Below, piece by piece: positions 1,669 through 29,117 of a DNA stretch of 35,747 nucleotides. Location: sequence record DRR723986_5735. One strand, written 5' to 3'. Every line of letters begins with the position of its first letter. Position 1 is the first letter of the stretch. Below the pieces are notes generated by a model, which saw only the letters and a list, made by a program, of their open reading frames with translations, did not search any database and had not been told where the DNA came from. The translations under genes were made by a program, and so were the position numbers.

Positions 1669-4600
1669 TTATCGGTTCCGAAAACTGGCTGTCTGGAACG
1701 CGGATGGCACGCTTGCGTTCGATGCCTCAGCCGGCGCGACTGGTTCGATCGGGATCGCGGGAGATTCGATAATCGTAGGTGCCGAATTCATGTTGATATC
1801 TTCCATGATCATCGGCTGTCCGAATTCTGCCTGCTGCCGTGGTACTGAACGATCGTCAATCGAGCTCGGCTGCATGTCTGGATAGATCGTTGAACTTCTC
1901 GCAGGCCCCCATAGACCATTGCCGCCCGATAGTCCGACATCACCATGAGCATTCAAGACATCTGACAGACACCAACTCATCCGCGAGCTTTCAACTTCCT
2001 TGATGATCTCATAGTCTTCATCAGTGTTGATGATCCGTGGTGTCAGCACGATCAAGAGTTCTCGTCGTTGCTCGGATTCGACATCAAATCGGAAGGCAGG
2101 TCCAATCAGTGGCAAACTGCCCAAGATTGGCACTTGAGTACGAGAGCTGGATCGCGACTTGCTGATCAACCCGCCAAACACAACGGTCTGCCCTGAATAT
2201 GCGGAAACAGTTGTATTCGCATTGGTTGTTTGAATAATGGGAGAACGAATGACTTCACCGTTCTGCCCGAATCCGATTGGAATCCCGCTGTCGGAATCAC
2301 CGATGCTCGAATTTTCAACTGCAACCTCGCAGACAATCAATCCGTCTGCATTTACACGCGGAAGAATCTGTAGGATCAATCCTACCTCCGCATCGTTGGT
2401 GATAATCTGCTGTGGGTTGAGTCCAGTGGCCTGTGAAACGGAGGTAACCCGTGGTACCAACTGCCCCACCTGAGCCGACGCGATACGGTTTTCAATCGTC
2501 GTGATTGTTGGACGGTTTAGGATCTGAGCGCGGTTAGCTGTTTGCAGCGCCCGCAGCAGAACTCCGACCGCTTCACTGGAAGCGCTGAGGATGATTCCAC
2601 CTGGCCCAGATGTGCTTGCCCGACCGACACCGAAGGAGCTAAGCACTTGTCCAGCAACGTTTTGTGTCTGTCCAGCCCCACCCGAAGGTCCTGTTATTGG
2701 ATTACCAAGATTGAATACCGAGGAGCCTAGAGTTCCACCGGTGGATGCTTGACGGTCAAACAGCAGTCCGTCCTGCAATCCCCATTCTGTACCGAGTTCG
2801 AACTGGTCGTCCAGTTGCACTTCGGCGACCAAAACTTGAATAGCAATCATTGGTGGACGGCGGTCTAGTCGCTCAACCAGACGCATAGCCTCTTCAAAAT
2901 TCTTTTCATCGGCACTGATAAGAATGCTATTCGTTGCTTCTTCAGCGACAACAAGAACCCGACGATTCGCCAGTTCAGCGGCACTAATGATCTGCTGCTG
3001 AATCAAAGACTGCTCATTCTGAAACAACTGGTCAAAATAGGTCGAAAGCGCCGCCTGAACATCAACGGCAGTGGCATTCCGCAACCACACAACCTCAGAC
3101 AGTCGCCTGTCGACGATATCTTCATCCAACCGAAGGATCAAAGCTTCGATAACCTGCAGGTCGGACTCTGAACCGCTGACGATGATGCTATTGGTTCGCC
3201 CCTCCGGTGCAATCTGGAGCTGAATTAACGAGCTCTCACCCCCGGTGGAAATATTGTTCCGAGTCGAATTATTCAGGAAGTTACCAGTTGCACTTTGGCC
3301 AGCCGTTACTGCCAAACCGAACAGCCCCTGAAGAGACGCTGCCATGGTGGTAGCGTCTCCGTTAACAAGCTGGAAGACTTTGATGCGTGCTTCAGCTCCT
3401 GGCGGCTGGTCTAATTCGCTGATCAAATTCCCAATCAGTACCATGCTCTGCGACGGAGCACGAACAATAAGTTGGTTATTGTTCACATCGGCCGAGATCA
3501 CAACACCAGCCAGAATCCCCGATTCAACTCGGTTTCCATTGACGGTGACCAGGCTAACCTTGCCACTTGGTGGAGTAGCTTGCGAGCCGTCGTCGACGGT
3601 TGTTTGGCCACCAATGATCTCTTCTAGAACTGTTTGCAGTTCTTCCGCGAGAGCATTCTTCAGCTTAAACACTTGAACGTCATTTGCCGCTGCGGCGGTT
3701 TCGACGTCCAGTTTTGCGATCAACTGCTCGACTTCAATCAGCTCTCGTGGTGAAGCTTGAACGATCAAAGAATTCGTGCGATAGTCGCCAAGAATGATGA
3801 CTCGTGTCGCAAGGCCTGGCCGCGTATCCCCACCGTCTCCATCGACTGTGAAGAAACTTCGAACGCGTTCTTCGATATCAACCGCGGATGCATGCAGTAG
3901 CGGAATGACCTTTAACTGGTTCTGAGGGTCAAGTGGAACATCGATCTTCTCAATGAGTTCCTGGACCGTTTGTACAACTTCAGCACGACCGATTAGTAGA
4001 AGAGCATTCGGCTGCACCAGCGCCGAAATGCTGATGTTGCCTTGCCGAGCGGCATAGACCTCTTCGTAGAGTTCGGAGACGAGTTGTTCTACCGCTTCGC
4101 CATTCGCGTGCTTGAGCGGGTAAACGACAATCTCGGGCTGAGTCTTCTCGGCTTGCTCCTTGATACGCTCGATAACTTCGAGCGTTCGTTTCACATCATC
4201 TTTGCTACCGCGGATGATAACCAGGTCGATCTCTTCGATGAACTCAATTTGCACGTCACCGAACAGCCCACTGCCGGCACCGAGATCGTCCAAGGTACCC
4301 ATAGCGGTGGCAGGCTCGTCGCCGTCAACGTTGACTTCCGCCTGAGCTTGGCCACCTTGTTGCTCCTGAATGGTTGCCTTGACCATTTGGAAAGCTTGCT
4401 TGACCTTGCGTGGCGCGGCCGGTGCAAGTGGGACGACGTGGGTGGATCGAATTGGATCGGCTTGCCCCTGGTCCAAAGTACGGACAACTTGGGCCCAGCC
4501 TGCAATCTCCTCGCTATCACCGATCATGTTAATCGTATTGTTGCGACGGTCGATTTGCAGAATGTCGCGGCCCCCACGACGATTGGCGATCTGCAGATTG

Positions 4601-5163
4601 ACGACTTCGCCATTGCGATCCGTCGTCAATGCCAGTTTCGAACCGCTGAGGCGGACGAGCGCGTCTTCCATCTCACGCCAGCTCAGGTTTCTGAGAGTGT
4701 ATGCGCGAGAGAAAGCCGATGCCAGGCTACCAACTTCACCGGTGGTGATGTTGTTTTGCTGCATAAGCTGCGCAAACTGCACTGAAAGTTCTTGGTGCAC
4801 CGCCGGAGGCGCCATGACCATCAACGCGCCGGAATTTGGGTCTGTCGTTACTCTGACACTTGGATTGGAGTGGTACTTGACTTGGAGCTGTGCTCCAACG
4901 CTTCCAACCAACCCCGCGGGCAAGTTGTAGGTCTTCAAGCTCGCCTGCGACGCTGGCGCCACCGTATTTCGTGCTGATTGCTCAGCGCCTGTTGGCAGTG
5001 GAGCAAACTGGGTTTGCTGGGCAGGTGCAGAGTAGGGCGAAAATCCTGGTTGCTGGCCAGTCGCGGTTGAACCAGCTGTTGAGAGGCCACCGAGTAGACT
5101 CGCGAGAAACAGCTTCCTAGCCCAATTGCGAGATGATTTGCGATTGCGAGATTTCTTGAGCAT
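1669..5163 (-). CDS. Large secretin (type II/III secretion system protein D family) with multiple Secretin_N repeats
   Basis: 1164 aa; signal peptide; repeated units such as D.RTNSLIV....EL..VEQLI.KLD; C-terminal secretin core (MIAIQVLVAEVQL, ILNRPTITT, GLILQILPRVN, SGQTVVFGGLI, VPILGSLPLIGPAFR, ELLIVLTPRII). Confidence 0.93.
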   Translation of the reverse strand: MLKKSRNRKSSRNWARKLFLASLLGGLSTAGSTATGQQPGFSPYSAPAQQTQFAPLPTGAEQSARNTVAPASQASLKTYNLPAGLVGSVGAQLQVKYHSNPSVRVTTDPNSGALMVMAPPAVHQELSVQFAQLMQQNNITTGEVGSLASAFSRAYTLRNLSWREMEDALVRLSGSKLALTTDRNGEVVNLQIANRRGGRDILQIDRRNNTINMIGDSEEIAGWAQVVRTLDQGQADPIRSTHVVPLAPAAPRKVKQAFQMVKATIQEQQGGQAQAEVNVDGDEPATAMGTLDDLGAGSGLFGDVQIEFIEEIDLVIIRGSKDDVKRTLEVIERIKEQAEKTQPEIVVYPLKHANGEAVEQLVSELYEEVYAARQGNISISALVQPNALLLIGRAEVVQTVQELIEKIDVPLDPQNQLKVIPLLHASAVDIEERVRSFFTVDGDGGDTRPGLATRVIILGDYRTNSLIVQASPRELIEVEQLIAKLDVETAAAANDVQVFKLKNALAEELQTVLEEIIGGQTTVDDGSQATPPSGKVSLVTVNGNRVESGILAGVVISADVNNNQLIVRAPSQSMVLIGNLISELDQPPGAEARIKVFQLVNGDATTMAASLQGLFGLAVTAGQSATGNFLNNSTRNNISTGGESSLIQLQIAPEGRTNSIIVSGSESDLQVIEALILRLDEDIVDRRLSEVVWLRNATAVDVQAALSTYFDQLFQNEQSLIQQQIISAAELANRRVLVVAEEATNSILISADEKNFEEAMRLVERLDRRPPMIAIQVLVAEVQLDDQFELGTEWGLQDGLLFDRQASTGGTLGSSVFNLGNPITGPSGGAGQTQNVAGQVLSSFGVGRASTSGPGGIILSASSEAVGVLLRALQTANRAQILNRPTITTIENRIASAQVGQLVPRVTSVSQATGLNPQQIITNDAEVGLILQILPRVNADGLIVCEVAVENSSIGDSDSGIPIGFGQNGEVIRSPIIQTTNANTTVSAYSGQTVVFGGLISKSRSSSRTQVPILGSLPLIGPAFRFDVESEQRRELLIVLTPRIINTDEDYEIIKEVESSRMSWCLSDVLNAHGDVGLSGGNGLWGPARSSTIYPDMQPSSIDDRSVPRQQAEFGQPMIMEDINMNSAPTIIESPAIPIEPVAPAEASNASVPSAFQTASFRNR

Positions 5164-16482: not shown

Positions 16483-17385
16483 ATGTCGCATGTACTCTTG
16501 GTTGAAGACAGTCCCACACAAGCACTGCAGATGAAAATGCTGCTTGAATCGGCTGAGCACGATGTTACGTGCTGTGACGATGGGACGGCAGCAGTAGAAG
16601 AATTGGCGAATGGAACCAGCGAGATCGTCGTCACCGATCTGGAACTGCCCGTCATGAACGGGCTTGAGTTGATCAAGCGGATGCAGGCTGATTTCCCAGA
16701 TGTCCCGGCAGTCTTGGTAACAGGCCACGGATCGGAACGCCTGGCAGCGGAAGCCTTGCAGGTTGGTGCAACTGCTTACGTTCCCAAGAGCATGCTCGAT
16801 GAGTTGCTGCTTGGAACAGTTGAAGACGTTTTGGGCGTCATGCGGACCGACCGCAGCTACGCCGAACTTATCGACTGCACCGAAGAAAATCGGCTTGTCT
16901 TCAACCTACCCAACAAACCGGCGCTCCTAACTGCTGCTATCGACCTGACGATGCAGATGGCTGCCGGCATGCAATTGCTCTCGGGCGTCGAACGTTTTCG
17001 TGTTGGAACGGCGTTGCGGCAAGCTGCTTCAAACGCGATCTACCGGGGGAATCTTGAACTCACTCACACCGAATGGAAGCAAACTTCCGCTGAAGAATCG
17101 ATCGATTCGACCGATGCCGCCGTGGTCGAAAAGCTCAATGATTCCGCGCTTGCAAATCGCAAGATCCACTTCGATGCGCGTGTCACTCGCGACTTTATTC
17201 GAGTCGTCATTGCCGATCAGGGTAAGGGATTTGACCATGCCAGCGTCATAGGAGCCGAGGGCAGCAATGTCGACGACTCACACGGTCGTGGCCTGGTCAT
17301 GATCAAGAATTTTATGGACAAGATATCATTTAATACGCGCGGAAACGAAATCACCCTCGTGAAACATTGCAAAGCGGACGCCTAG
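16483..17385 (+). CDS. Response regulator: REC domain + RsbW/SpoIIAB-like HATPase_c domain
   Basis: GAGGTG RBS; REC motifs LLVEDS, VVTDLELPVMNG, YVPK; C-terminal N-box (SNAIYRGN), DQGKGFD, GRGLVMI and GNEITLVK. Confidence 0.9.
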   Translation: MSHVLLVEDSPTQALQMKMLLESAEHDVTCCDDGTAAVEELANGTSEIVVTDLELPVMNGLELIKRMQADFPDVPAVLVTGHGSERLAAEALQVGATAYVPKSMLDELLLGTVEDVLGVMRTDRSYAELIDCTEENRLVFNLPNKPALLTAAIDLTMQMAAGMQLLSGVERFRVGTALRQAASNAIYRGNLELTHTEWKQTSAEESIDSTDAAVVEKLNDSALANRKIHFDARVTRDFIRVVIADQGKGFDHASVIGAEGSNVDDSHGRGLVMIKNFMDKISFNTRGNEITLVKHCKADA

Positions 17386-17453
17386 CGACTGGTAACCGCA
17401 TGGCCCAGCATTAGAACGACTTTCCAGCGAGTCATTCAAGTAAGTTAAACAGC

Positions 17454-20400
17454 ATGACAAGTCCGTTTGCGATCGACTCGGCCAAAGACTTACCTTCACA
17501 CAACGTACTTGACCGAATTTCTGATATCGCGTTTGTGATTACGTCCGACTTCGGTCAGATCGTGCACGCCAACTCTGCGGCTTCCAGCTTCCTTGGATGG
17601 CGACCTGCAGAGCTTGTAAGTTTTGAGTCGTGGCAGAATCACATCGTCGCACCGGATTCCCAGCCTGTTCTTGCTGAACTCTGCGCTGCTTGTCAAGCAG
17701 CCAGCGGTAGCGAGTCGATCGAAATCAATCGAACGTTCGACATCGAATTCCTGTCCGCCGCGGGATTCTCCCTATCGATCAGATTCAATTGCGCTATCGT
17801 TTCAGAAGGCCAGACCCTACTGCTGGGCCAAGAGCAGTTGTCCGATGAGCGCGCCGAAGAAGTCTTAAGACAAGTAAATGCTCGCTTTCGTTCCATCGTC
17901 GACAGCCTGTCAATAAATCTGGTCCTGAAAGATACCAGTGGGAAACGAATCTACGCAAACCAGGCATATCTAAAACATCGACGTCTTCAGCTCGGCGATA
18001 TTCTCGGCAAGAAAGACACAGACCTTTTTCCTGCAGACTTGGCGGAACAGTTCGCCAATGACGACCGGCAAGTTCTGCAGCATGGAAAGGTTATCCACAA
18101 GTTTGAGGAGAACATCAGCGCCGCGGGTATTCGCAAGTGGACAGAAATTATCAAGGGGCCTGTGCGCGATGCGGACGACGAGATCTCCGGAGTACAGATC
18201 CTTTTCTGGGATGCAAGTGACCGCAAAACGACCGAACTAGAACTTGAACGCGAGCGGTATCTGTTGCACGCGCTACTGGACAACATCCCCGATTCAATAT
18301 ACTTCAAAGACAAGGACAGTAAGTTCGTTCGCATTAGTCGCGGTATGGCTCAGAAATTTGACTTGGAGGATCCAACGGTTGCAATTGGTCGAACCGACGC
18401 GGACATATTCACAGAACAGCATGCTCTGCAAGCTCGGCGAGACGAACAGGAGATAATGGAGACGGGGCGTCCGGTTGTTGGATTAGTCGAACGCGAAACA
18501 TGGCCCGATCGCCCCGACACCTGGTGCTCATCTACAAAGCTGCCGTTGACCGACGCAGAAGGAAAAGTCGTAGGCACTTTTGGCATCTCGCGTGACGTCA
18601 CTGAACTGATCGAAATCGAGCAAAAGCTGCGGGAAGCCCGTGATCAAGCGGACCAAGCCAGCCATGCAAAGAGCGAGTTTCTTGCCAATATGAGCCACGA
18701 AATTCGCACACCGATGAACGGTATCATCGGCATGAGTGAGTTGCTCAGCCATACGTCGTTGACCGACACGCAAGCGTCTTACCTGAAGATGATTCAGCAA
18801 TCCGCGTCTTCACTGCTTCGAATCATTAACGACATCCTGGACTTTTCGAAGATTGAAGCGGGCAAGCTTGAGCTCGTTACGATCCCGTTCCAAATTCAAG
18901 AATGTATCGCCGATGCAGCGAAGGGATTAGCGATTCGCGCAGCCAAGAAAGGGCTACGTCTCGATTTACAAATTGACACCGATGTCCCGGAGACAGTTTT
19001 GGGTGACCCAGACCGTTTGCGGCAGGTGATCATCAACCTGGCAGGAAACGCGATCAAGTTCACAAGCGAGGGGCAGGTTGGCATTCGCGTCAAAGTCACT
19101 AGCGGACCGCCGGCGGACACGAATTACACACTACACTTCTCGATCAGCGATACGGGGATTGGCATTCCGGAAGCGAAACAGGCAGCGATCTTTGAAGCGT
19201 TTTCGCAAGCCGACGTGTCTACGACGCGGACTTACGGCGGGACCGGACTTGGACTTTCCATATCGACGCAACTGGTCGATCTTATGCGAGGCAAGATCTG
19301 GCTTGAGAGTGAACTTGGCAGTGGATCAACATTTCACTTCAGTGGAGTGTTTGAACCAGCCTCGTCACAGAACACCGACGTGCCACCCAACGCAAGCCTG
19401 CAGGACATCCATCTACTGTATGTCGCCTCCACTCCTCGCGAGCACCTGCAACACGGCCTTCAACGACGAGGCCTCAAGCTGACCGTTGCAACCGAGTTCA
19501 GCTCTGCCCCCGAACTGCTGCAGTCCATGCTGACGGCCGAACCCGAGCGAATCGCGGTACTGATCGACCTGGCCGATGCCGAAGCTGTTGGCGTCCAGCT
19601 CGCTGAAGACCTGCAAAGCCGTGCGCCTGATCGCATCAAGTCGACTTTACTGTTGTCCGATTCGCCAAATCCGGTCACGGCCAAGTCGTCCGAAAAACTA
19701 AGCAAAGCGCAAATTCTCCAGACGCCGGTGCTCGTGACAGAAATATGCCGAGTCTTGGCCCAAACTGACCACCCACCACAAACCGCGAAGGACGATGCAG
19801 CTACGACTGACCAACACCGCCTCAATCTACTGTTAGCTGAAGACGGCGAGGTGAACCGGGCAATCATGCTAGGCATTCTTGAAAAACTTGGACACTCAGT
19901 GACGTGGGTCGACGATGGCGACAAGGCGGTTAGCAAATGGGAAGAGGGCCAATTCGATGCCATCCTGATGGATATCCAAATGCCCGTCATGGATGGACTT
20001 GAGGCTAGCAAGGCGATTCGGCAGATTGAGCGGCATGGCGATCGGGCAAAGCAAACGCCCATCATTGCAATCACTGCGGGAGCTATGGAGAGCGATCGAG
20101 ATCAGTGCATTGCTGCTGGCATGAATGACTATTTGAGCAAGCCAATTGACTTCGCCCAGTTGGAAGATTTGCTGGACCGCCTACAAGCACACACACTTGC
20201 ACCGCAACCTGGATCAGTATTCGGCAGCTTCCAAGAAACAGGGGCTGCGGCAGCAACGCCAGAAGCGGCCCCCAACGAATCAACTATTCAAGACCGAGAC
20301 AATACGGATACGGAGCAGCCGCCAAAGGGCAAGCTCGATTTTGATGCCCCGGTAAGGAAATTCAAGAGCACGGCCGACCAGCAAGTTGCCTTGGTTAGCA

Positions 20401-20669
20401 CGCTTAGAAAGGAAATCGCCCAACGATTAGACGAATTGTCGGATGCGATTGATGGCCAAGACGGCAAGCTGCTGGTACGGGCGTCACACTCTCTGAAGAG
20501 CGCCGCAGCATTGTTCGGAGCCAGCGAAATCAAGCACCAATCTGCAACCATCGAGGCGGCCGCTCGAACGGGCGACTTCAGTGTTGCCAATAGTTCATTC
20601 GCTAGCCTACGCTTATTATGCCAGGAAGCGTTCGACGAGATCGATCAGTGGATTGAATCGCACACCTGA
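17454..20669 (+). CDS. Cytoplasmic hybrid sensor histidine kinase (PAS x3-HisKA-HATPase-degenerate REC-REC-HPt)
   Basis: PAS/PAC repeats; H-box [16 protein letters not shown]-box [38 protein letters not shown]...SKP; HPt [10 protein letters not shown]; no TM segments. Confidence 0.95.
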
Positions 20670-20728: not shown

Positions 20729-21664
20729 TTACTGTTTTGGACCCTGCTGGGTCTGCTCGGTGAAAGTACTCTCGAAAATCTTGTCCGCATTGCCTGCCTC
20801 AAACCCATCGCGGCGGTGCTCCCGCGTAATCTTGTCTGTGGGCATGTCGGAATACTCTGGTAGTATTCTTCTCTCTGCGAATTCAACGTAGCTGCCCGCT
20901 ATCAGATGTTTTTCGGGTTCGTCGGATGCCGCAAAGTCTGCCTCGACCATTTCCGCAACTGTTGAACTCTGCAGCAACAATCCATCTGGACTCTCTTTCA
21001 CTTTCCCGCCAGACGTATTGAGTCGCACGCCAGCCGCCTCGATCAACTCATTGAATTTGGCAACTCTATCATGCGGCGGCGGTAGGTTGTGAACACTAAT
21101 CGTAAAGTGGTTCAAGTAGTAGCGATTGTAGATCACCCAAGCTGCGTACTCGCTCTCAGCCAGCAGCGTTTCGTACTCATTCCAGCTCGGTAGTCGCCAA
21201 AGCGGGCGGTGGAGAAACCCATCAACCTCAGAAGCATCTCCCAGTTTCAAGTCATCAACGGGATCACTGGTAATGCCATCCGTAAAGGAGTGAATGATCC
21301 GCTGTGCTTCTTTCGAGAGCTCCTGGATTCGTAATTCACTGATGAAGATGCGAGGGAAACTCGGCTGAGGCGGAGAATACCAAAAAGCATCAAGCTTCTT
21401 GGCTTTAAAATGATAGCTATCGCGTCGTTCGTATCCGCAATGCAAGAAGATCTTTTCCAATGAGGCGATGCCGAGGTTTTCGACACCCAACGTACGAAAA
21501 GCAATGTGGTCGTTTTCAATTTCTTGCTCAGATTTGATGATCCCCGCAGCTTTCATCGCCTGAAGAACCCTAGCGACATCTGGTACACGCTCCGCATAGC
21601 GACTCATGAGTCCGTCCAGGATTTTCGCTAGCAAATGAATTCTATCTTCCACGACTGGGGTCAC
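20729..21664 (-). CDS. DUF1338 family protein (2-oxoadipate dioxygenase/decarboxylase-like, VOC fold)
   Basis: DHIAFRT, PRIFISEL, ESEYAAW, LNHFT, LLQSST, YVEFAER and RDGFEAGNADKIFEST motifs. Confidence 0.88.
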   Translation of the reverse strand: MTPVVEDRIHLLAKILDGLMSRYAERVPDVARVLQAMKAAGIIKSEQEIENDHIAFRTLGVENLGIASLEKIFLHCGYERRDSYHFKAKKLDAFWYSPPQPSFPRIFISELRIQELSKEAQRIIHSFTDGITSDPVDDLKLGDASEVDGFLHRPLWRLPSWNEYETLLAESEYAAWVIYNRYYLNHFTISVHNLPPPHDRVAKFNELIEAAGVRLNTSGGKVKESPDGLLLQSSTVAEMVEADFAASDEPEKHLIAGSYVEFAERRILPEYSDMPTDKITREHRRDGFEAGNADKIFESTFTEQTQQGPKQ

Positions 21665-21906: not shown

Positions 21907-22812
21907 ATGACGACTAACTCCACAATTGCTCCCACCCCAACCCGCATTCTTGCGGCACTGCTTCCAAGGCGTCTGCGTGCGCCCATCGCAAGAGTTTCAG
22001 TCGCAGCAGGACTACTGTCGATCCTAATGGCTGGGTGTGGGTCGACGAAAAGCTACACCGCGACCGAGCAATTACTGCTTAGCGACGCTGTGGACACAAC
22101 CATTGCCAAACTTGATTTTTCGCCCTTGCGTGACCAGAAGGTTTACCTTGACGTGACCTATTTGAAAACGCAGCGAAGTCAGATCTTGATAGATTCGGAC
22201 TACGTCATCAGTTCAATCAGACAACAGATGGTCGGTGATGGCGTGCGGCTGGTTGAAGGGCGAGACGAAGCCGAAATCATAGCAGAAGCTCGCCTCGGAG
22301 CCCTTGGCTTGGACGGGCATACGGTAACGTACGGCATACCGGCCAGCAATCTACTTCGTACGGCAAGCGCTGCATTTGCCAATGCTCCACCAGTTCCTGC
22401 GATCCCAGAAATGTCGTTTGCAAAGTATGAAAGTAAGCTCGGAGCTGCGAAAGTTGCTGTCTTCGCATACAAACGGCAAACGCGTGAACCGGTGTGGCAG
22501 TCGGGCATCGCTCACTCCAGTAGTAACGCAAAGGATACTTGGGTGCTGGGGATTGGACCGTTCCAGCGTGGTTCCATTCGCTCCGACACGAAGTTCGCTG
22601 GTGATGACATTGCGGCCACCGAGCTACTGAAGGATCCGAAAGCCGACATCCACGAATTAGAACCGTACAAGGACTACGAGCGCTCTCGGGTATTTCCCGC
22701 ATTGTTCGAAGGTTTGCAACGCCGTGAGCCTGGGGAGGGTGTCGTGCCCGCTACCGGCGAGGAAACTGCAACCGAAAGCCCACAGCCCAAGCCTGGCAAA
22801 CCCGCGAAATAG
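21907..22812 (+). CDS. Lipoprotein, probably DUF6655 family; first gene of the redox operon
   Basis: Lipobox LMAG|C, then TATEQLLLSDAVD...LDF...KVYLD, YVISSIRQ, EARLGALG and GAAKVAVFAY. Confidence 0.75.
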   Translation: MTTNSTIAPTPTRILAALLPRRLRAPIARVSVAAGLLSILMAGCGSTKSYTATEQLLLSDAVDTTIAKLDFSPLRDQKVYLDVTYLKTQRSQILIDSDYVISSIRQQMVGDGVRLVEGRDEAEIIAEARLGALGLDGHTVTYGIPASNLLRTASAAFANAPPVPAIPEMSFAKYESKLGAAKVAVFAYKRQTREPVWQSGIAHSSSNAKDTWVLGIGPFQRGSIRSDTKFAGDDIAATELLKDPKADIHELEPYKDYERSRVFPALFEGLQRREPGEGVVPATGEETATESPQPKPGKPAK

Positions 22813-22829
22813 CTTTACCGAATACGCCC

Positions 22830-24557
22830 ATGTCAAACGAATCTGTCGAAGTAGAAAGGCCGGAGCGTTGGGATCATCCGCTGGATCTCAACATGACTGA
22901 TGAAGTTGTTGCGCAGCTTCTTCAGTTCCCGCCGTTTTCGCAGATGGACAGCAAGAAGTTCGCAAGCAATCTTTCTTTAGCGGGTGTTCTTCGAAATGAC
23001 GCCCGATTGGTTGCTTTCGACGAAGGTGACTTCATTTTCCAGGAAGGCCAGTACGGCGGCACTGCCTATCTGGTCCTGGACGGCAACGTACGGATTGTCC
23101 TTGATCGCCTGGTGGCCGGAGCGGAAAGCCTTCGTCGAAAATGGACGGGGATGCAGTGGCTTTCGTTCTTTCGAAACAAAGAGAAAAAGAACGACAATCG
23201 TCCGGTTGTCGACATCGGCTACTCCGCCCGCGGCAGTGGAAAAGACACGCGACTGTATCTACAAGACATCCCGCGACTGGTTACAGAACACGCCACCAGC
23301 CAGGTAACCGCTGGAGAGATGTTTGGTGAAATCGCAGCCTTTAACCGGACACCTCGCGAATTCACTGCAGTGGCCGAGACCGCCTGCAAGATGCTCGAAA
23401 TCCGCTGGCAGGGCCTGAAGCTACTCAAGCAAGACCCAAGCTTTCGAGCACTGCTTGACGATCAATATCGTGGCGATTTACTGTCAGGCGAACTTCGCTC
23501 CCTAGAGCTCTTCAACTTCACACCGGAAGAAGATTTTGAACGTGTCGTTGCATCGGCAAAGATCGAGTCGTTTGGCAACCTGGAGTGGTTCGCCGACTAT
23601 CGAAAACGGCTCAGCAAAACAGCAAAAGAACAAATTGAATCCGAACCGCTAATTTGTGAAGAAGGCCAATACGTCACAGGGCTGTGGATCATACGAAGTG
23701 GCTTTGCACGCCTGAGCCGCCGCCAAGGCACTGGACACCGGACACTGGCCTACCTTGGTAAAGGGCAAATGTTCGGCCTCAAAGAACTCGCGCACAATCA
23801 TCATGCGTCGGCTGATGGCAAACCGTTGCCGTATCAGGAGTCGCTGCGAGCGATCGGGCACGTCGACGCTATCTGCATCCCCAAAGCAGAGGTCCTCAGG
23901 TACATCCTCCCTTATGTCCGTCGCAGTGATTTGCCACCAGAAATCGTCAATCCCCATTACGAATTCGGCCAGCCGATCGTTGATGCCGCGCTGGACGCCG
24001 CGCTGGGAAATGTGGAAACAGGCCTGCTGGAGTTCCTTGTCGAAAAACGGCTGATGAACGGTCGCGAGGCGATGGTGATCGACATGCACCGCTGCACACG
24101 TTGCGACGACTGCGTACGTGCTTGTGCGACTACACATGGCGGAACACCTGTGTTCGAACGCCACGGCCCCCAGTACGGAAAGTGGATGATTGCCCAGGCT
24201 TGCATGCACTGCGAAGACCCTGTTTGTATGATTGGCTGCCCAACGGGTGCAATTCATCGCAATCACGAAACTGGCATGGTCGACATTAACTCGTCAACCT
24301 GCATCGGATGCAAGACGTGCGCGGAAAGCTGTCCGTACGACAATATTAAGATGGTAACCGCCCAGGACAACAAGGGCAGGGCTAAGGTCGACGAACAAAC
24401 AGGCTTGCCAATTCTACAGGCCAGCAAATGTGACTTCTGCTCAACCGCAGGCGGCCAGCCGTCCTGCCAAGCAGCTTGCCCTCACGACGCTCTATATCGC
24501 TTCGATCTTAGTGACATCTCGGCGGTAGAAAAACTGATGGGGGGCAACAGTTCATGA
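22830..24557 (+). CDS. Tandem cyclic-nucleotide-binding domains fused to a four-cluster [4Fe-4S] ferredoxin domain (DmsB/NrfC-type Cys pattern)
   Basis: cNMP motifs GDFIFQEG...YLVLDG...GEMFGEIAAFNRTPREFTAVA and LICEEG...IIRSG...GKGQMFG; 16 Cys in CTRCDDCVRAC, CMHCEDPVCMIGCP, CIGCKTCAESCP and CDFC-x7-CQAACP. Confidence 0.92.
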   Translation: MSNESVEVERPERWDHPLDLNMTDEVVAQLLQFPPFSQMDSKKFASNLSLAGVLRNDARLVAFDEGDFIFQEGQYGGTAYLVLDGNVRIVLDRLVAGAESLRRKWTGMQWLSFFRNKEKKNDNRPVVDIGYSARGSGKDTRLYLQDIPRLVTEHATSQVTAGEMFGEIAAFNRTPREFTAVAETACKMLEIRWQGLKLLKQDPSFRALLDDQYRGDLLSGELRSLELFNFTPEEDFERVVASAKIESFGNLEWFADYRKRLSKTAKEQIESEPLICEEGQYVTGLWIIRSGFARLSRRQGTGHRTLAYLGKGQMFGLKELAHNHHASADGKPLPYQESLRAIGHVDAICIPKAEVLRYILPYVRRSDLPPEIVNPHYEFGQPIVDAALDAALGNVETGLLEFLVEKRLMNGREAMVIDMHRCTRCDDCVRACATTHGGTPVFERHGPQYGKWMIAQACMHCEDPVCMIGCPTGAIHRNHETGMVDINSSTCIGCKTCAESCPYDNIKMVTAQDNKGRAKVDEQTGLPILQASKCDFCSTAGGQPSCQAACPHDALYRFDLSDISAVEKLMGGNSS

Positions 24558-25390
24558 GTGGCCCCAAGTCGCAGAAAACCAGGCGAGCCCGAATGCTCGC
24601 TGTGGCATTCACAATCGTGGCTGCAGCGCTGTGCGCGTGGCTTTGTAAGATCATCGACCATAACCTGGGCGATACCGCCACCTTCACCGGCTTTGCCCTG
24701 TTCGCCGCAACGGCCAGTTTGTATCTGCTGTCAGCTCGAAAGAAGTGGATCACACTGCCCGTTGGTCCCGTTAGCGCTTGGCTGCAACTGCACGCGTACA
24801 CGGGAACCTTCGCCAGCATCATTTTCTTCTTTCATGTCCAATTCCCTCTCACTGGATATTTTGAAACACTTCTGGCCTGTTCATTCCTTTTCGTTGCTGG
24901 AACGGGTATTGCCCTCGGTTATCTGTCACGCTCAACCCCTCAACGCTTAGCCGCAATCCCCGGCGACAACCATCAAGACCTCATACCGGCTTTGCAAGCT
25001 AATGTAGCTGAGGAAGCACACGCGCGAGCACTCTCGAGCACGGCGCAGGGCGAGGGTGCGACGCTCGCCGAGTACTACCAACACAAGCTATTGCCCTATT
25101 TCCGCACGCCCCGAAGCATGGCGTATATCCTTTTGCCGACCGGCAATCTGCGACGTCGCCTACTTCGTGAACTAAGCGATCTCGACCGCTACCTTGGCCC
25201 GAGCGGACTCGCGGCTCGCCAGTCCTTGACCGCAATGGTCCAGCAGAAAGATGATCTCGACTATCAGTATGCGCTACAGTACCGCCTAAAACTTTTCTTC
25301 ATGCTCCATGTCTCGATGATTTGGAGCCTCGCCTTGATGATTGCCGTCCATATTGTCCTGGTCTACCGCTTTCAAGGAACGATCCATTGA
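24554..25390 (+). CDS. Integral membrane protein, putative diheme cytochrome b (ferric-reductase-like TM domain)
   Basis: About 5 TM helices; two helices each carry H-x13-H (H80/H94 and H252/H266); ATGA overlap with the upstream gene. Confidence 0.78.
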   Translation: MSGPKSQKTRRARMLAVAFTIVAAALCAWLCKIIDHNLGDTATFTGFALFAATASLYLLSARKKWITLPVGPVSAWLQLHAYTGTFASIIFFFHVQFPLTGYFETLLACSFLFVAGTGIALGYLSRSTPQRLAAIPGDNHQDLIPALQANVAEEAHARALSSTAQGEGATLAEYYQHKLLPYFRTPRSMAYILLPTGNLRRRLLRELSDLDRYLGPSGLAARQSLTAMVQQKDDLDYQYALQYRLKLFFMLHVSMIWSLALMIAVHIVLVYRFQGTIH

Positions 25391-27714
25391 ACGCAGGGCA
25401 AGGGAAACCAAGTGAAGATGCGGGTCAAGAACCACGCGAAGCGGCCACCGCTGGAGAGGCTAGCTGTGATTCGTCAGGCTGCCATCTATCTGGCTGCACA
25501 GGTGCGGCAAGTTGCTCGGCAGGTGGCTGCGGCAAGAAAACGGTCAGTTCGGTCCTGAAGAAGCGCTTTCGCCCGAACGCACGTTGGCGATGCGGCTACC
25601 AGTCAACCGGCATGGCCTGTAGCGAAGGCCCAACTGCCGATGGGCGTTGCTGCCAAGTTGCTTCCCAGGCAGAGACGGTGTCCGACTGTGCCGAGAATTG
25701 CTCCTGCGTAGAACAATGCGAACTGGCCAGCCTGCGAGCCCATCCACAACTGCCATCGCACCTTGACCTGGGGCCGTGCATGCCAAAGCGTTCACACTGG
25801 TACTCACGGCAGAACATTGCAATCAACCTGGCAATTCTAACCGGTGGCCTGCTGCTGCTTTCAATGTCCGTTCCCGGACGCGAACAAGTCTTCGTCCCTG
25901 GAGGCCTATCCACTAAGCACTCCCAGATTCTCAACAATCGATTGGTCAAAGACCGATGCAGCCTTTGCCATGCGAATCCGCACGGGGAATTTGCTGGCAC
26001 TACGCAGGACATGCTCTGCATGAACTGCCATCAGTCCCATATGCCGGATGCCTCGCTCCGCAGCCCTCACGACCTAACGCGCACTCAGCTTGTCGGCCTC
26101 CGGAGTGACCAGAAGAATCAACAAGGTCTTTCACAAACCCACTGTGCGAGTTGTCATAGCGAACACCACGGCACTGACCAAGACCTCAAGAAGATGAGCG
26201 ATGCCAGATGTCAGGCATGCCATGAGAAACAGTTCCAATCGCTGGTAGATGGGCATGCTGAATTTACGGACTATCCGTATCGGACGCGCCGAGTGATCGC
26301 GTTCGATCACAACTCCCATGCGACAAAACACTTCGCAGGCAAGAACCGTGAATTCCAATGCAATACCTGTCACTCTGGGGCGGCGACGACCGCGACAGGT
26401 ATTTCTCGAGGCGTCGATTACAACGTGGGTTGCGCGGATTGCCATGACCAGAGTCTGCGAAGCAAGTCACTCGACGGCTGGGCTGTCATTACACTTCCAA
26501 GTATCGAACCGTCGGATGCAGATTCTGGACAATTGGCAGATTGGCCAACGGCTTCCCAGTTTGGCTATGAAGGGATCGTATCGCTGCCGATGCGATACCT
26601 GCTTCAGTTTGCAGACACCGCTGGCGCAAATCGGCTTCTACCGGACAGTGGCGACCTATCACGGGTAGACAATGACAAGAAACAAGAACTCACTGTAGCC
26701 GCGGCCGTCTCAACACAAGAATTGATTGCGAGAGTTGCATCCGAAGGGCAAGAATACTGGAGACGACGCCTGGAAGAGCAGCTTGCATCCAAACTAGGTC
26801 GCGAACTTAATGAACAAGAACTTGCACTAACAGCTCAACTCACTCGAGGCATTTCGCCTGACTTGTTTCGTAAGATGCAGCGTGACTGGTTCAACAAGCC
26901 ATCGCAATTCACCAAAGCAACGCCAGTGAATCGAGAGTCCGTGGGAAGCGAGACCTCCTCAAACTCCCTTGTCACGCACTCCAACCGCTCTGAGTCCACA
27001 ACCGGCTCAAAGACCGCGGGCTCGGATGTACAAGATTTACCGCCATTGTCCGCTGATGAACATGTTAGTACCGGCGGATGGTTCGTCGACGACGAGTTCC
27101 TGAGTCTCAACTATGTACCGTCCGGCCATGCTGATCCAACTTTGGTTGCATGGATTGAGTATTCAATGTTGAGCGCGGCCGGGGAAGTCGAGCAGGGCAG
27201 GGGCCCCGCAACGTGGCTCCAATCCGATTCATTGCTACAAAGCTGTCTTGAGTGCCACCAGGGCTCCAGCCATAGCACTCCAGTGCAATCATTTGACTGG
27301 AAGTCTGCCGGTAGGCCAGCGGGCGTGAAGACATTCACCAAGTTCAATCACGGGCCGCACCTAAAGTTACCTGCGGTAAACCAATGCAGCTACTGCCACC
27401 AGCTCACCTCCGCGTCGGAGGCGATACAGGACGACCTGACCGCGGTCTCTGCGACAGCGGACGTTGCGCCGCACAAAGACTTTTCGGACATCAAGCTCGA
27501 CCAATGCACAGCTTGCCATCGCGAAGACGCAGCCCCCAATGACTGCACGACGTGCCATTCATACCATGTTGGCGACGAGGGTTTTGCCTGGTCCCGCCAG
27601 CGTTTTGCTGAAACACTCCGCCTAGCCGAAACAGAGCAAGTCGACCAGATTCTTCGGCTTGCGAAACGACGACAAGGCGCCGGAGAATCTCAGGAAACCA
27701 CCAGCCCGAAGTGA
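25387..27714 (+). CDS. Membrane-anchored decaheme c-type cytochrome (class III c3/c7-like motifs) with a Cys-rich N-terminus
   Basis: Ten CxxCH motifs (CSLCH, CMNCH, CASCH, CQACH, CNTCH, CADCH, CLECH, CSYCH, CTACH, CTTCH); FDHNSH and FNHGPH distal-ligand motifs; TM helix IAINLAILTGGLLLLSMSV; probable TTG start at 25387 overlapping the upstream TGA (ORF open from 25321). Confidence 0.9.
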   Translation: MNAGQGKPSEDAGQEPREAATAGEASCDSSGCHLSGCTGAASCSAGGCGKKTVSSVLKKRFRPNARWRCGYQSTGMACSEGPTADGRCCQVASQAETVSDCAENCSCVEQCELASLRAHPQLPSHLDLGPCMPKRSHWYSRQNIAINLAILTGGLLLLSMSVPGREQVFVPGGLSTKHSQILNNRLVKDRCSLCHANPHGEFAGTTQDMLCMNCHQSHMPDASLRSPHDLTRTQLVGLRSDQKNQQGLSQTHCASCHSEHHGTDQDLKKMSDARCQACHEKQFQSLVDGHAEFTDYPYRTRRVIAFDHNSHATKHFAGKNREFQCNTCHSGAATTATGISRGVDYNVGCADCHDQSLRSKSLDGWAVITLPSIEPSDADSGQLADWPTASQFGYEGIVSLPMRYLLQFADTAGANRLLPDSGDLSRVDNDKKQELTVAAAVSTQELIARVASEGQEYWRRRLEEQLASKLGRELNEQELALTAQLTRGISPDLFRKMQRDWFNKPSQFTKATPVNRESVGSETSSNSLVTHSNRSESTTGSKTAGSDVQDLPPLSADEHVSTGGWFVDDEFLSLNYVPSGHADPTLVAWIEYSMLSAAGEVEQGRGPATWLQSDSLLQSCLECHQGSSHSTPVQSFDWKSAGRPAGVKTFTKFNHGPHLKLPAVNQCSYCHQLTSASEAIQDDLTAVSATADVAPHKDFSDIKLDQCTACHREDAAPNDCTTCHSYHVGDEGFAWSRQRFAETLRLAETEQVDQILRLAKRRQGAGESQETTSPK

Positions 27715-27908: not shown

Positions 27909-28157
27909 TATTTGCACCACGCTACATTTTCTCCCTCGGAAGCTATCGCGGTGCGTTCTACCGATTAGTCCGGTCGTTCGTGCTGGCGCCACTGGCTATC
28001 TTCTTCTGTACCATTGCGGTAATGCGAATTCTGCGCCCCGGCGGGGGATTTTGTCCTACCTTACTGCAGCCCTCGATTGCTAGCCCTGGCGATCCGGGAC
28101 GTCTGCCCAGCGTCAGCACGTTGTTTCAGCGGAAAATGCAGTCACGGTAATCACTCA

Positions 28158-29117
28158 ATGGAAATCTCCCTACCAATCCGACGCATCCTAGTTGGTGCGG
28201 GAGTCTGCGCCGTCTCCTGCTTAATCTCCTATGCAAGCTATGTCGCTGCCGGATGGGGAATGCTGGACGCAGCATACATGGTGGTCATCACCATTTTCGG
28301 GATTGGCTACGGGGAAGTTCACCCGGTCGAATCCCCGCTACTCAAGCTCCAAACGATGTCACTGATCATCGTTGGCTGCCTGTCAGGCCTCTATTTCTGC
28401 GGCGGCTTTATTCAGTTGATCACCGAAGGCGAAATTAACAGGGCCCTGGGCGCTCAGAAGATGAACCGAGGAATAAAGAAAATGAGAGACCACGCAATTA
28501 TCTGTGGCTTTGGCAGAGTGGGCAAAATGTTGGCCGACCGATTGAAGCGTGACAACATTGCGTGCGTCGTCATTGATAGCGACCTGCAGCGACTGGAACA
28601 AGCAGAGCAGGCGGGGCTAACGACCGTCTGCGGTGATGCGAGCAACGACGAAACGCTCGAAGCGGCCGGAATTACGCGAGCTCGAACGCTAGCAAGCGTG
28701 CTTCCGAACGATGCGGTCAATGTCTTTATTACGCTGACAGCTCGAGACTTAAACTCGCGAATCGAGATCATCGCCCGAGCAGAAAGTCCAACGACCGAGC
28801 GAAAACTGCGGCGCAGCGGAGCCAACCACGTCGTCCTACCGGCAGCGATTGGGGCACTTCGAATGGCTGAGATCATCAGCAACCTGCCACCGATAAAGCC
28901 AACTCGACGACTTGCAGACGCTCTGCCCGTCGACTTGAAGCGTGTCGCTATTGCCAGCGCCCGCGACCTGGAAGAACGCACTCTCTTGGAGGCCCGGAAC
29001 CTGCTAGCCGAAATCGGGCAAATCGTTGGCCTTCAGGACGGCAAGGGCGAGCTTGTTACCGAACTTGAGGATGAGCGACTTCTCAAACAAGACGATGTAC
29101 TGTTGCTAGCAAAGTAG
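28158..29117 (+). CDS. Two-TM potassium channel protein with RCK (TrkA-N) domain
   Basis: Pore helix LDAAYMVVITIFGIGYGEVHP (GYG filter); RCK motifs HAIICGFGRVG, GDASNDETLEAAGI, N.FITLTAR and GANHVVLP; ATG 28158 is the likelier start. Confidence 0.9.
   Translation: MEISLPIRRILVGAGVCAVSCLISYASYVAAGWGMLDAAYMVVITIFGIGYGEVHPVESPLLKLQTMSLIIVGCLSGLYFCGGFIQLITEGEINRALGAQKMNRGIKKMRDHAIICGFGRVGKMLADRLKRDNIACVVIDSDLQRLEQAEQAGLTTVCGDASNDETLEAAGITRARTLASVLPNDAVNVFITLTARDLNSRIEIIARAESPTTERKLRRSGANHVVLPAAIGALRMAEIISNLPPIKPTRRLADALPVDLKRVAIASARDLEERTLLEARNLLAEIGQIVGLQDGKGELVTELEDERLLKQDDVLLLAK

Follow-up and report, generated by a model that had tools for sequence, protein, structure and literature searches.

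Two described gene clusters, PCC4 and ptd, come closest to the locus considered here, a four-gene region at positions 21907–27714 of DNA record DRR723986_5735; the whole 35,747-nt stretch that was analyzed is referred to as the window. PCC4 comprises a porin, 4-, 5-, and 10-heme cytochromes, and a conserved five-helix inner-membrane protein (IMP) (He et al. 2017, Front Microbiol, PMC5566968). In IMP, helices 3 and 5 each carry W-x3-H-x13-H and helix 4 has an SGxxG-type motif, and two hemes b have been proposed for the protein by analogy with the ferric-reductase domain (FRD) (PMC5566968). In subgroup II of PCC4, which includes Planctomycetes, a gene for an iron–sulfur (Fe–S) protein (pfam13247) is located upstream of that for IMP (PMC5566968). 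The ptdABCDEFG cluster encodes a pentaheme cytochrome (ptdA), a porin (ptdB), an FAD/NAD(P) oxidoreductase (PtdC), a tetraheme cytochrome (PtdD), a protein with cyclic-nucleotide-binding (CNB) and 4Fe–4S domains (PtdE), a ferric-reductase-like membrane protein (PtdF), and a periplasmic decaheme cytochrome (PtdG) (bioRxiv 10.1101/2023.11.21.568154). Its carriers include Planctomycetes, and its function is described in the preprint as 'completely unknown' (bioRxiv 10.1101/2023.11.21.568154).

Judged by architecture and description, the second to fourth genes of the locus (p2, p3, and p4) are planctomycete homologs of PtdE, PtdF, and PtdG, that is, of the Fe–S protein, IMP, and decaheme cytochrome of PCC4 subgroup II. 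The locus is genuine and well conserved, and it belongs to a system that already has a name. Its layout is not new: the sequence-only reading of the region had implied novelty while allowing for an earlier mention, and the layout is in print as both PCC4 (PMC5566968) and ptdABCDEFG (10.1101/2023.11.21.568154). The window contains a member of the PtdEFG/PCC4 inner-membrane module only, not a full porin–cytochrome complex. The module is very probably an electron conduit, and we favor, with less assurance, the view that PtdEFG is the inner-membrane core of a conduit that is fed by NAD(P)H, runs outward, and may be gated by a cyclic nucleotide. The genes are as follows.

21907..22812 (+): p1, 301 aa, DUF6655 lipoprotein (Pfam PF20360)
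22830..24557 (+): p2, 575 aa, PtdE-like CNB/4x[4Fe–4S] protein, predicted cytoplasmic (cNMP_binding and Fer4 families)
24554..25390 (+): p3, 278 aa, PtdF-like protein/PCC4 'IMP', five-helix membrane protein (His motifs, AlphaFold2 (AF2) model)
25387..27714 (+; alternative start 25321): p4, 775/797 aa, PtdG-like decaheme cytochrome c (10 CxxCH)

Gene Organization and Conservation of the Module

Direct reading of the sequence bears out the gene coordinates, spacing, and lipobox first reported for the region. The p1 and p2 genes are separated by a 17-nt gap, the stop codon of p2 and the start codon of p3 overlap as ATGA at 24554–24557, and the TTG start of p4 at 25387 overlaps the TGA of p3 (TTGA). 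A second in-frame TTG at 25321 makes the start position of p4 uncertain. Base composition is uniform over the region, and a promoter/terminator scan, with 1 promoter-like site (3.4 expected) and 12 terminator-like sites (7.2 expected), is uninformative. The window is planctomycete-like, with DUF1559/N-methyl genes and a secretin among its genes, and the nearest locus, L001, is from a Pirellulaceae metagenome-assembled genome (MAG) with a p3 identity of 85%.

When 185,579 species genomes were scanned by pattern for p3 relatives, 258 proved positive, and 80 loci were analyzed. Only loci with enough flanking sequence are counted below, namely ≥1.7 kb upstream for p2 and ≥2.3 kb downstream for p4. 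The p2 gene is located upstream of p3 in the same orientation in 75/75 loci, and p4 lies downstream of p3 in 69 of the 70. Genes 2–4 are a conserved module, with linkage far beyond chance. Of the four genes first grouped together, p2–p3–p4 remain linked, whereas p1 is far from the module in other Pirellulales genomes. The sole locus that has sufficient downstream sequence and no decaheme gene (L061, 8820–12056) contains other open reading frames (ORFs) at that position, including a 615-aa minus-strand ORF that ends in ...RWKF and has an outer-membrane-protein-like C-terminus.

A p3 profile search of 1.84 billion representatives retrieves 2702 proteins (clusters) at E ≤ 1e-3, 1200 at E ≤ 1e-10, and 420 at E ≤ 1e-30. 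Of 301 genomes sampled evenly across the phylum, 47 match the profile at E ≤ 1e-10; about 23 of these match near full-length, and the remainder represent a shorter paralogous family. The p3 family extends to Alphaproteobacteria, and a metagenome scan with the alphaproteobacterial PtdF P0119 gives one locus, L111, with E–F–G order at the contig start.

As far as the two sources describe their clusters, the locus resembles ptd in that p2–p3–p4 are in PtdE–F–G order and, among related loci, 28 have a PtdC-type gene and 27 a PtdD-type gene ahead of the module. It differs in that the window has neither ptdA nor ptdB, nor ptdC/ptdD beside the module, and has a DUF6655 gene upstream instead. The likeness to PCC4 subgroup II consists of the pfam13247 gene directly 5′ of the IMP gene (ATGA overlap in the window; this order in 75/75 loci), of a five-helix membrane protein with paired His motifs on helices 3 and 5, and of the 4- and 10-heme cytochromes, whereas no porin or pentaheme gene was recognized beside the module.

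The CNB/Iron–Sulfur Protein p2

The Pfam family cNMP_binding (PF00027) matches p2 in three stretches with 86.5 bits (cut-off 27.5). The protein has CNB-type domains at residues ~40–200 and ~250–370 and a C-terminal 4x[4Fe–4S] ferredoxin domain at residues ~410–560, which matches Fer4_11 (PF13247; E = 9.8e-10) and many Fer4 families. Of the 19 Cys residues, 16 are located in four clusters (422–432, 458–470, 491–501, and 534–550), and all 16 are invariant among 21 sequences. The preprint on ptd assigns two 4Fe–4S clusters to PtdE (10.1101/2023.11.21.568154), whereas the p2 sequence has ligands for four.

The scores of p2 against NCBIfam equivalogs are far below the cut-offs for DsrO (68/200 bits), DmsB (68/214 bits), and NrfC (60/378 bits), and HydN is also below; in particular, the resemblance to DsrO is that of a generic ferredoxin domain. 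By sequence, the ferredoxin domain is a member of the broad DmsB/NrfC/HycB fold family and of no named subunit family. Its closest solved sequence relatives are HycB3 (7qv7_A, 2.5e-15), HycB (7z0s_B, 3.9e-13), and FdnH. HycB3 and HycB, which we take to be cytoplasmic proteins, are polyferredoxins of HDCR and formate hydrogenlyase with which the 16-Cys four-cluster pattern of p2 aligns. Unlike p2, they have no CNB domains, and they work with catalytic subunits that are soluble or peripheral rather than with a diheme membrane protein.

Because p2 has no signal peptide and no hydrophobic segment in a hydropathy scan, it is predicted to be cytoplasmic. These results, with the Pfam matches and the Cys count, agree with the original description of the second gene product as a 16-Cys ferredoxin fused to cNMP domains and without a signal peptide. 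No helix-turn-helix (HTH), kinase, or cyclase output domain is found in p2 in the Pfam scan.

The extreme N-terminus of p2 carries the motif RPxRWDHPL; over residues 10–17 (window 22857–22880) it reads R-P-x-R-W-D/x-H/x-P, in which R10, P11, R13, and P17 are invariant and W14 is conserved in at least 90% of 21 sequences. This RPxRW motif may be a docking site.

The Predicted Diheme Membrane Protein p3

The two H-x13-H helices noted in p3 at the outset are confirmed as His pairs H80/H94 (helix 3) and H252/H266 (helix 5), with 13 residues between the members of each pair; all are invariant in 20 aligned sequences. In a larger set consisting of the window protein and 150 representatives at 50% identity, all four His residues are kept in 149/151 sequences, the exceptions being P0246 and the frameshift-like P0256. 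W76-x3-H80-x13-H94 of helix 3 is invariant. In helix 5, the window protein has F248 (F-x3-H) where distant members carry Trp, and helix 4 has T117-G118 (TGxxxG), in which G118 is invariant and the family consensus is SG; the F-x3-H and TGxxxG forms distinguish the window protein from IMP of PCC4 as described (PMC5566968).

The AF2 model of p3 has a predicted local distance difference test score (pLDDT) of 89.7 and a predicted template-modeling score (pTM) of 0.79, and its helices can be accounted for by five membrane spans and an inserted helical domain of ~110 residues between helices 4 and 5. Taken with the positive-inside rule, the modeled helices suggest five spans with the N-terminus inside, and the ~110-residue domain would be cytoplasmic. 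As odd-numbered helices, helices 3 and 5 would be parallel, and p3 is predicted to bind two hemes b via the two His pairs on these parallel helices.

Family-level comparisons give faint links to known cytochromes. Weak Pfam matches (E ≤ 1) among 20 p3 family members are to Ni_hydr_CYTB (14 members, best 1.2e-5), DUF4405 (11), PepSY_TM (8), and Ferric_reduct (2), all of which are heme-b membrane families of one Pfam clan. In an hhalign comparison of p3 with three planctomycete FRD proteins, the H-x13-H helix is aligned (probability 31%, E = 5e-4). In a wide structural search with VIA, STEAP1 (Z 10.3) and STEAP4 (Z 10.0), with 146 and 148 residues aligned, are among the matches with the greatest coverage, yet their Z scores are within the range of generic helix bundles, and the list is topped by generic or designed bundles. 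Three results weigh against the assignment of p3 as a heme-b conduit protein. It reaches no Pfam cut-off (PepSY_TM 14.5 bits/28.8, DUF4405 10.4/26.7), a sequence search against solved structures returns chance-level rows only (E 1.5 and 3), and Foldseek gives no match at E ≤ 1e-3.

Natural fusions connect p2 and p3 in at least three distinct sequences. In the PtdE–PtdF fusions P0192 (843 aa) and P0262 (856 aa), cNMP_binding and Fer4 domains are followed by the membrane domain. A third fusion, P0387 (843 aa), is equal in length to P0192 and 85% identical to it, which indicates that the fusion is not a sequencing artefact. Fusions of the p2–p3 type point to direct contact between the two proteins, in which the Fe–S domain would face the N-terminal, cytoplasmic side of p3. 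A fused Fe–S/IMP gene has also been reported in Oceanospirillum beijerinckii (He et al. 2017, PMC5566968). P0256 (886 aa) was considered as a PtdF–PtdG fusion and rejected, as its last His helix is lost and it looks like a frameshift.

Paralogous membrane proteins of Planctomycetota (313–320 aa) match the p3 profile over helices 2–4 and over its last helix. They are encoded at the following positions.

L096:1697-2638: paralogous membrane protein; next gene 2649-4001
L098:1929-2891: paralogous membrane protein; next gene 2937-4499
L097:1525-2487: paralogous membrane protein

In L096 and L098, a multiheme cytochrome c gene is located directly 3′ of the membrane protein gene, and the L096 cytochrome has an N-terminal FHA domain. 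Similar porin-less membrane protein/cytochrome pairs are mentioned in the description of PCC4 (He et al. 2017, PMC5566968).

The Decaheme Cytochrome p4

p4 has exactly 10 CxxCH motifs, arranged as 6 + 4 and split by a heme-free insert of ~265 residues, and matches Cytochrome_C7 and Paired_CXXCH_1 in Pfam. Among its relatives longer than 650 aa, 68/70 also have exactly 10 CxxCH motifs; the other two have six. The sole hydrophobic anchor is at residues 144–162 (numbered from the 25387 start), so that both the transmembrane anchor and the ten hemes of the sequence-only reading are retained. That reading did not include the ~140 Cys-rich residues that precede the anchor.

In the pre-anchor segment (window 25387–25860), the Cys motif consists of RPNxxWxCG, C-x2-GP, and G-x-C(C), followed by GPC-x-P-x-R just 5′ of the anchor. 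It is kept in L001, L005, L033, L035, L044, L047, and L059, and is absent from L038 and L072. The segment is predicted to be cytoplasmic and could bind a metal or a further cluster.

Genes Adjoining the Module in Related Loci

The neighborhoods of 78 loci with p2 were classified by clustering of flanking ORFs, Pfam, and hidden Markov model recounts. A DUF6655 gene is located upstream in 20 loci and a reductase gene in 28, and 30 have neither type (9 of these 30 end short upstream). The reductase, which consists of FAD_binding_6, NAD_binding_1, and a C-terminal Fer2 domain, is encoded upstream of p2 in the same orientation, and the 28 loci represent a sister clade of that of the window. In 27 of the 28, a cytochrome gene is located between those for the reductase and p2, and each of the 27 cytochromes has four CxxCH motifs. 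A class III cyclase of ~594 aa (Guanylate_cyc, E = 5.4e-16) is encoded divergently in 25/28 reductase-bearing loci; its N-terminal parts, judged by eye, are FHA/GAF-like. In L059, from a Myxococcota MAG, the reductase gene is directly 5′ of p2.

The reductase and tetraheme genes are not found in the 35.7-kb window. However, three genomes of the window's clade (G001, G002, and G003) have a reductase homolog elsewhere; a tetraheme gene is confirmed beside it in G001 and G002, and the pair is 243 kb from ptdEFG in G001. The location of the reductase/tetraheme pair at a separate locus indicates that in this clade the system is split, not lost.

Some features of the neighborhoods count against a complete, nucleotide-gated conduit. 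In the window's clade, neither reductase nor cyclase adjoins the module. The cyclase-bearing loci belong to one related Pirellulales group and may reflect a single inherited arrangement rather than independent events. A porin or pentaheme gene (PtdA/B) is not recognized in the window or beside the module in loci with clustered flanks. A PF02335 search for PtdA-like NrfA-family cytochromes gives weak partial matches (E 1e-4 to 1e-3) in 3/5 related genomes.

An enoyl-CoA hydratase gene is located near the module in nine sister-clade loci and in the Myxococcota locus (for example, L038:11294-12250 (−) and L059:2245-3693 (−)).

Proposed Path and Direction of Electron Flow

The wire envisaged in the sequence-only reading, from cytoplasmic Fe–S clusters through membrane hemes b to periplasmic hemes c, is supported by the gene linkage, the conserved ligands, the fusions, and the reductase/tetraheme operon of the sister clade. 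Electrons would enter from NAD(P)H via FAD and the [2Fe–2S] cluster of a PtdC-like reductase and pass to the cytoplasmic four-[4Fe–4S] chain of the p2 C-terminal domain, docked on the cytoplasmic face of p3. They would then cross the membrane through the two bis-His hemes b of p3, one ligated by His80/His252 on the cytoplasmic side and the other by His94/His266 on the periplasmic side. From these hemes, the membrane-anchored decaheme p4 would receive electrons in the periplasm and deliver them via a PtdD-like tetraheme cytochrome to a periplasmic or extracellular acceptor. The net activity would be NAD(P)H-driven electron export, as by a split NADPH oxidase (NOX) that ends in a heme-c wire rather than in O2.

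This path resembles that of the NOX/STEAP/MsrQ proteins (PF01794), in which electrons flow from NAD(P)H to a flavin, to two stacked bis-His hemes b on helices 3 and 5 (H-x13-H), and to an outside acceptor. Unlike proteins of the NOX/ferric-reductase superfamily, p3 would have five helices, not six, and it has the ~110-residue helical insert between helices 4 and 5. The proposed path also differs from that of NOX in its separate flavin protein with its own [2Fe–2S] cluster, in the four interposed [4Fe–4S] clusters, and in its output to a decaheme cytochrome, not to O2 or a metal chelate. A precedent for the general wire layout is provided by the Tmc, Hmc, and DsrMKJOP complexes of sulfate reducers, which consist of periplasmic multiheme c, membrane cytochrome b, and cytoplasmic Fe–S proteins. 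Those complexes have an NarI-type cytochrome b and a CCG-domain Fe–S protein and are linked to quinone or DsrC. We know of no nucleotide-binding domain in them.

Flow through the module is probably outward. The FAD_binding_6/NAD_binding_1/Fer2 set of the PtdC-like reductase is presumably of the NAD(P)H-oxidizing type, as in phthalate dioxygenase reductase, and the membrane potential favors the exit of electrons, whereas their inward passage to NAD(P)+ would run uphill. Both considerations argue for the outward direction.

The published model of PCC4 speaks for the opposite direction. PCC4 occurs in Fe(II)-oxidizing Zetaproteobacteria and in Hyphomicrobium, and its flow is modeled inward, with extracellular Fe(II) as donor and the quinone pool as acceptor (PMC5566968); the PCC4 and ptd papers do not agree on which way electrons flow, and the function of each cluster is presented there as unknown or hypothetical (PMC5566968, 10.1101/2023.11.21.568154). 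Applied to the present locus, an extracellular donor such as Fe(II) or Mn(II) would reduce periplasmic cytochromes, and electrons would pass through p3 to quinone, or via the Fe–S protein and reductase to NAD(P)+. A quinone site on p3 may exist, and the p3 family does have its weak matches to quinone-reactive cytochrome b families (Ni_hydr_CYTB in 14/20). However, delivery to quinone would leave the four-cluster Fe–S protein and its fusion to p3 without a role. Delivery to NAD(P)+ would require a strongly uphill reduction from heme c by electrons moving against the membrane potential, and the operon reductase, where present, has the domain set that we take to be NAD(P)H-oxidizing. In addition, Pirellulales are not known to oxidize iron. 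Inward uptake is considered unlikely, and NAD(P)H-fed export remains the favored function of the module.

Possible Nucleotide Control

The two N-terminal CNB domains of p2 would make electron flow dependent on cAMP or cGMP. Gating of this kind would make sense, since a conduit left open would cost the cell reductant and membrane potential. In the phosphate-binding cassette of CNB domain 1, F165-G166-E167 and R173 are kept in 75/75 sequences and G162 in 74/75, and Arg340 of CNB domain 2 is likewise kept in 75/75. The domain 1 signature, taken with the sister-clade cyclase, makes nucleotide gating plausible.

Other residues speak against control by cyclic nucleotide monophosphates (cNMPs) and in favor of a real conduit whose CNB-type domains bind another small molecule or act as a scaffold or docking surface, for example for the reductase. 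In domain 1, the canonical Arg176 is kept in 59/75 sequences and replaced in 16/75, by His in 10/75. In domain 2, Leu317 occupies the canonical Glu position in 65/75, and the cassette has an insertion of variable length (up to three alignment columns gapped in 29–41 of 75 sequences). CRP/FNR-type domains are able to bind ligands besides cAMP or cGMP. The absence of an adjacent cyclase in the window's clade fits this alternative as well, and the best cyclase relatives in G001–G003 are 33% identical and located elsewhere in the genome. Against it are the fully or almost fully conserved domain 1 cassette, the Pfam score well above the cut-off, and the class III cyclase as divergent neighbor in 25/28 sister-clade loci. 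Binding of another ligand or a scaffolding role is rather unlikely on balance, and cNMP control of p2, judged from its sequence, is assigned slightly less than an even chance.

A further alternative is a redox-sensing device, in which the decaheme cytochrome would report the external redox state via the hemes b to the Fe–S clusters and so alter the nucleotide affinity of p2, which would buffer or relay cNMP. The absence of a catalytic domain from p2 is compatible with such a role, as are the FHA/GAF-like N-terminal parts of the neighboring sister-clade cyclase and the FHA signaling domain on the cytochrome of the paralogous pair in L096. However, p2 also has no HTH, kinase, or cyclase domain through which to signal, and ten hemes, four clusters, and a dedicated reductase and tetraheme cytochrome exceed the needs of sensing; this alternative is considered improbable.

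A more specific form of the outward, gated conduit is advanced tentatively, as a possibility somewhat more doubtful than cNMP control itself. PtdCDEFG would form a NOX-like 'electron valve' that is switched directly by cAMP/cGMP on the tandem CNB domains and contains one flavin, one [2Fe–2S] cluster, four [4Fe–4S] clusters, two hemes b, and fourteen hemes c. In Pirellulales, the signal for the valve would be supplied by the dedicated divergent cyclase. No description of nucleotide gating of a transmembrane redox wire was found in a full-text literature search. The term 'cyclic nucleotide' occurs 0 times in the main text of the PCC4 paper (PMC5566968), and gating is not proposed in the available passages of the ptd preprint (10.1101/2023.11.21.568154).

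The DUF6655 Lipoprotein p1 and Flanking Genes

p1 matches DUF6655 (PF20360) with E = 6.5e-69 and 232.5 bits (cut-off 27), and all 19 aligned sequences share its lipobox Cys44. In its AF2 model (mean pLDDT 66; core 10-residue blocks ≥90), an alpha/beta core precedes a disordered C-terminal tail. Foldseek matches are to lipoproteins of the outer membrane, LptE (5ixm_D, E = 9.5e-5) and CsgG (4uv2_F, E = 3.7e-4), and the TM scores are low (0.17–0.30). The term 'DUF6655' was not found in the full-text literature search.

All 20 of the 78 loci with a DUF6655 gene upstream of p2 are among the 34 closest to the window, and 8 others of these 34, each with over 1.2 kb of sequence upstream, are without it. 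In three sister-clade Pirellulales genomes (G004, G005, and G006), the DUF6655 gene is distant from the module, which indicates that the linkage is clade-specific; in both sister-clade loci with readable flanks it adjoins an HTH gene. For the same reason, DUF6655 was set aside as a dedicated subunit, and the earlier inclusion of the lipoprotein as a core part is not upheld. p1 is probably an accessory protein or a mere neighbor.

Several further genes flank the region. A 2-oxoadipate dioxygenase/decarboxylase (HGLS) gene (20729–21664, −) is divergent from the DUF6655 gene, as it is in 14 related loci. Just 5′ of the region (16483–20669, +), a gene for a response regulator that also includes an HATPase_c_2 domain is followed by one for a hybrid histidine kinase of 1071 aa (PAS, HisKA, receiver, and Hpt domains). 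Genes with ordinary annotation encode a TrkA-N/ion-channel protein directly 3′ of p4 (28077–29117, +) and, at 1669–5163 (−), a 1164-aa secretin with five Secretin_N stretches.

Significance for the PtdEFG/PCC4 Family

Relative to the published descriptions, the present analysis adds the cyclase and reductase neighborhoods in Pirellulales, the split system in the window's clade, the conserved fusions of the p2–p3 type, and the predicted cytoplasmic Cys motif of PtdG. The planctomycete loci are a compact test set, in which reductase, tetraheme cytochrome, PtdEFG, and cyclase are together in one clade and split in another. Further carriers in the two papers include marine nitrite oxidizers and iron oxidizers (10.1101/2023.11.21.568154, PMC5566968). 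If electron export from NAD(P)H is indeed under nucleotide control, a nucleotide would act on a transmembrane redox wire at the post-translational level, and bacteria would have a new means of adjusting redox balance or extracellular electron transfer, with a bearing on the cycling of metals and nitrogen in sediments and in oxygen-deficient waters.

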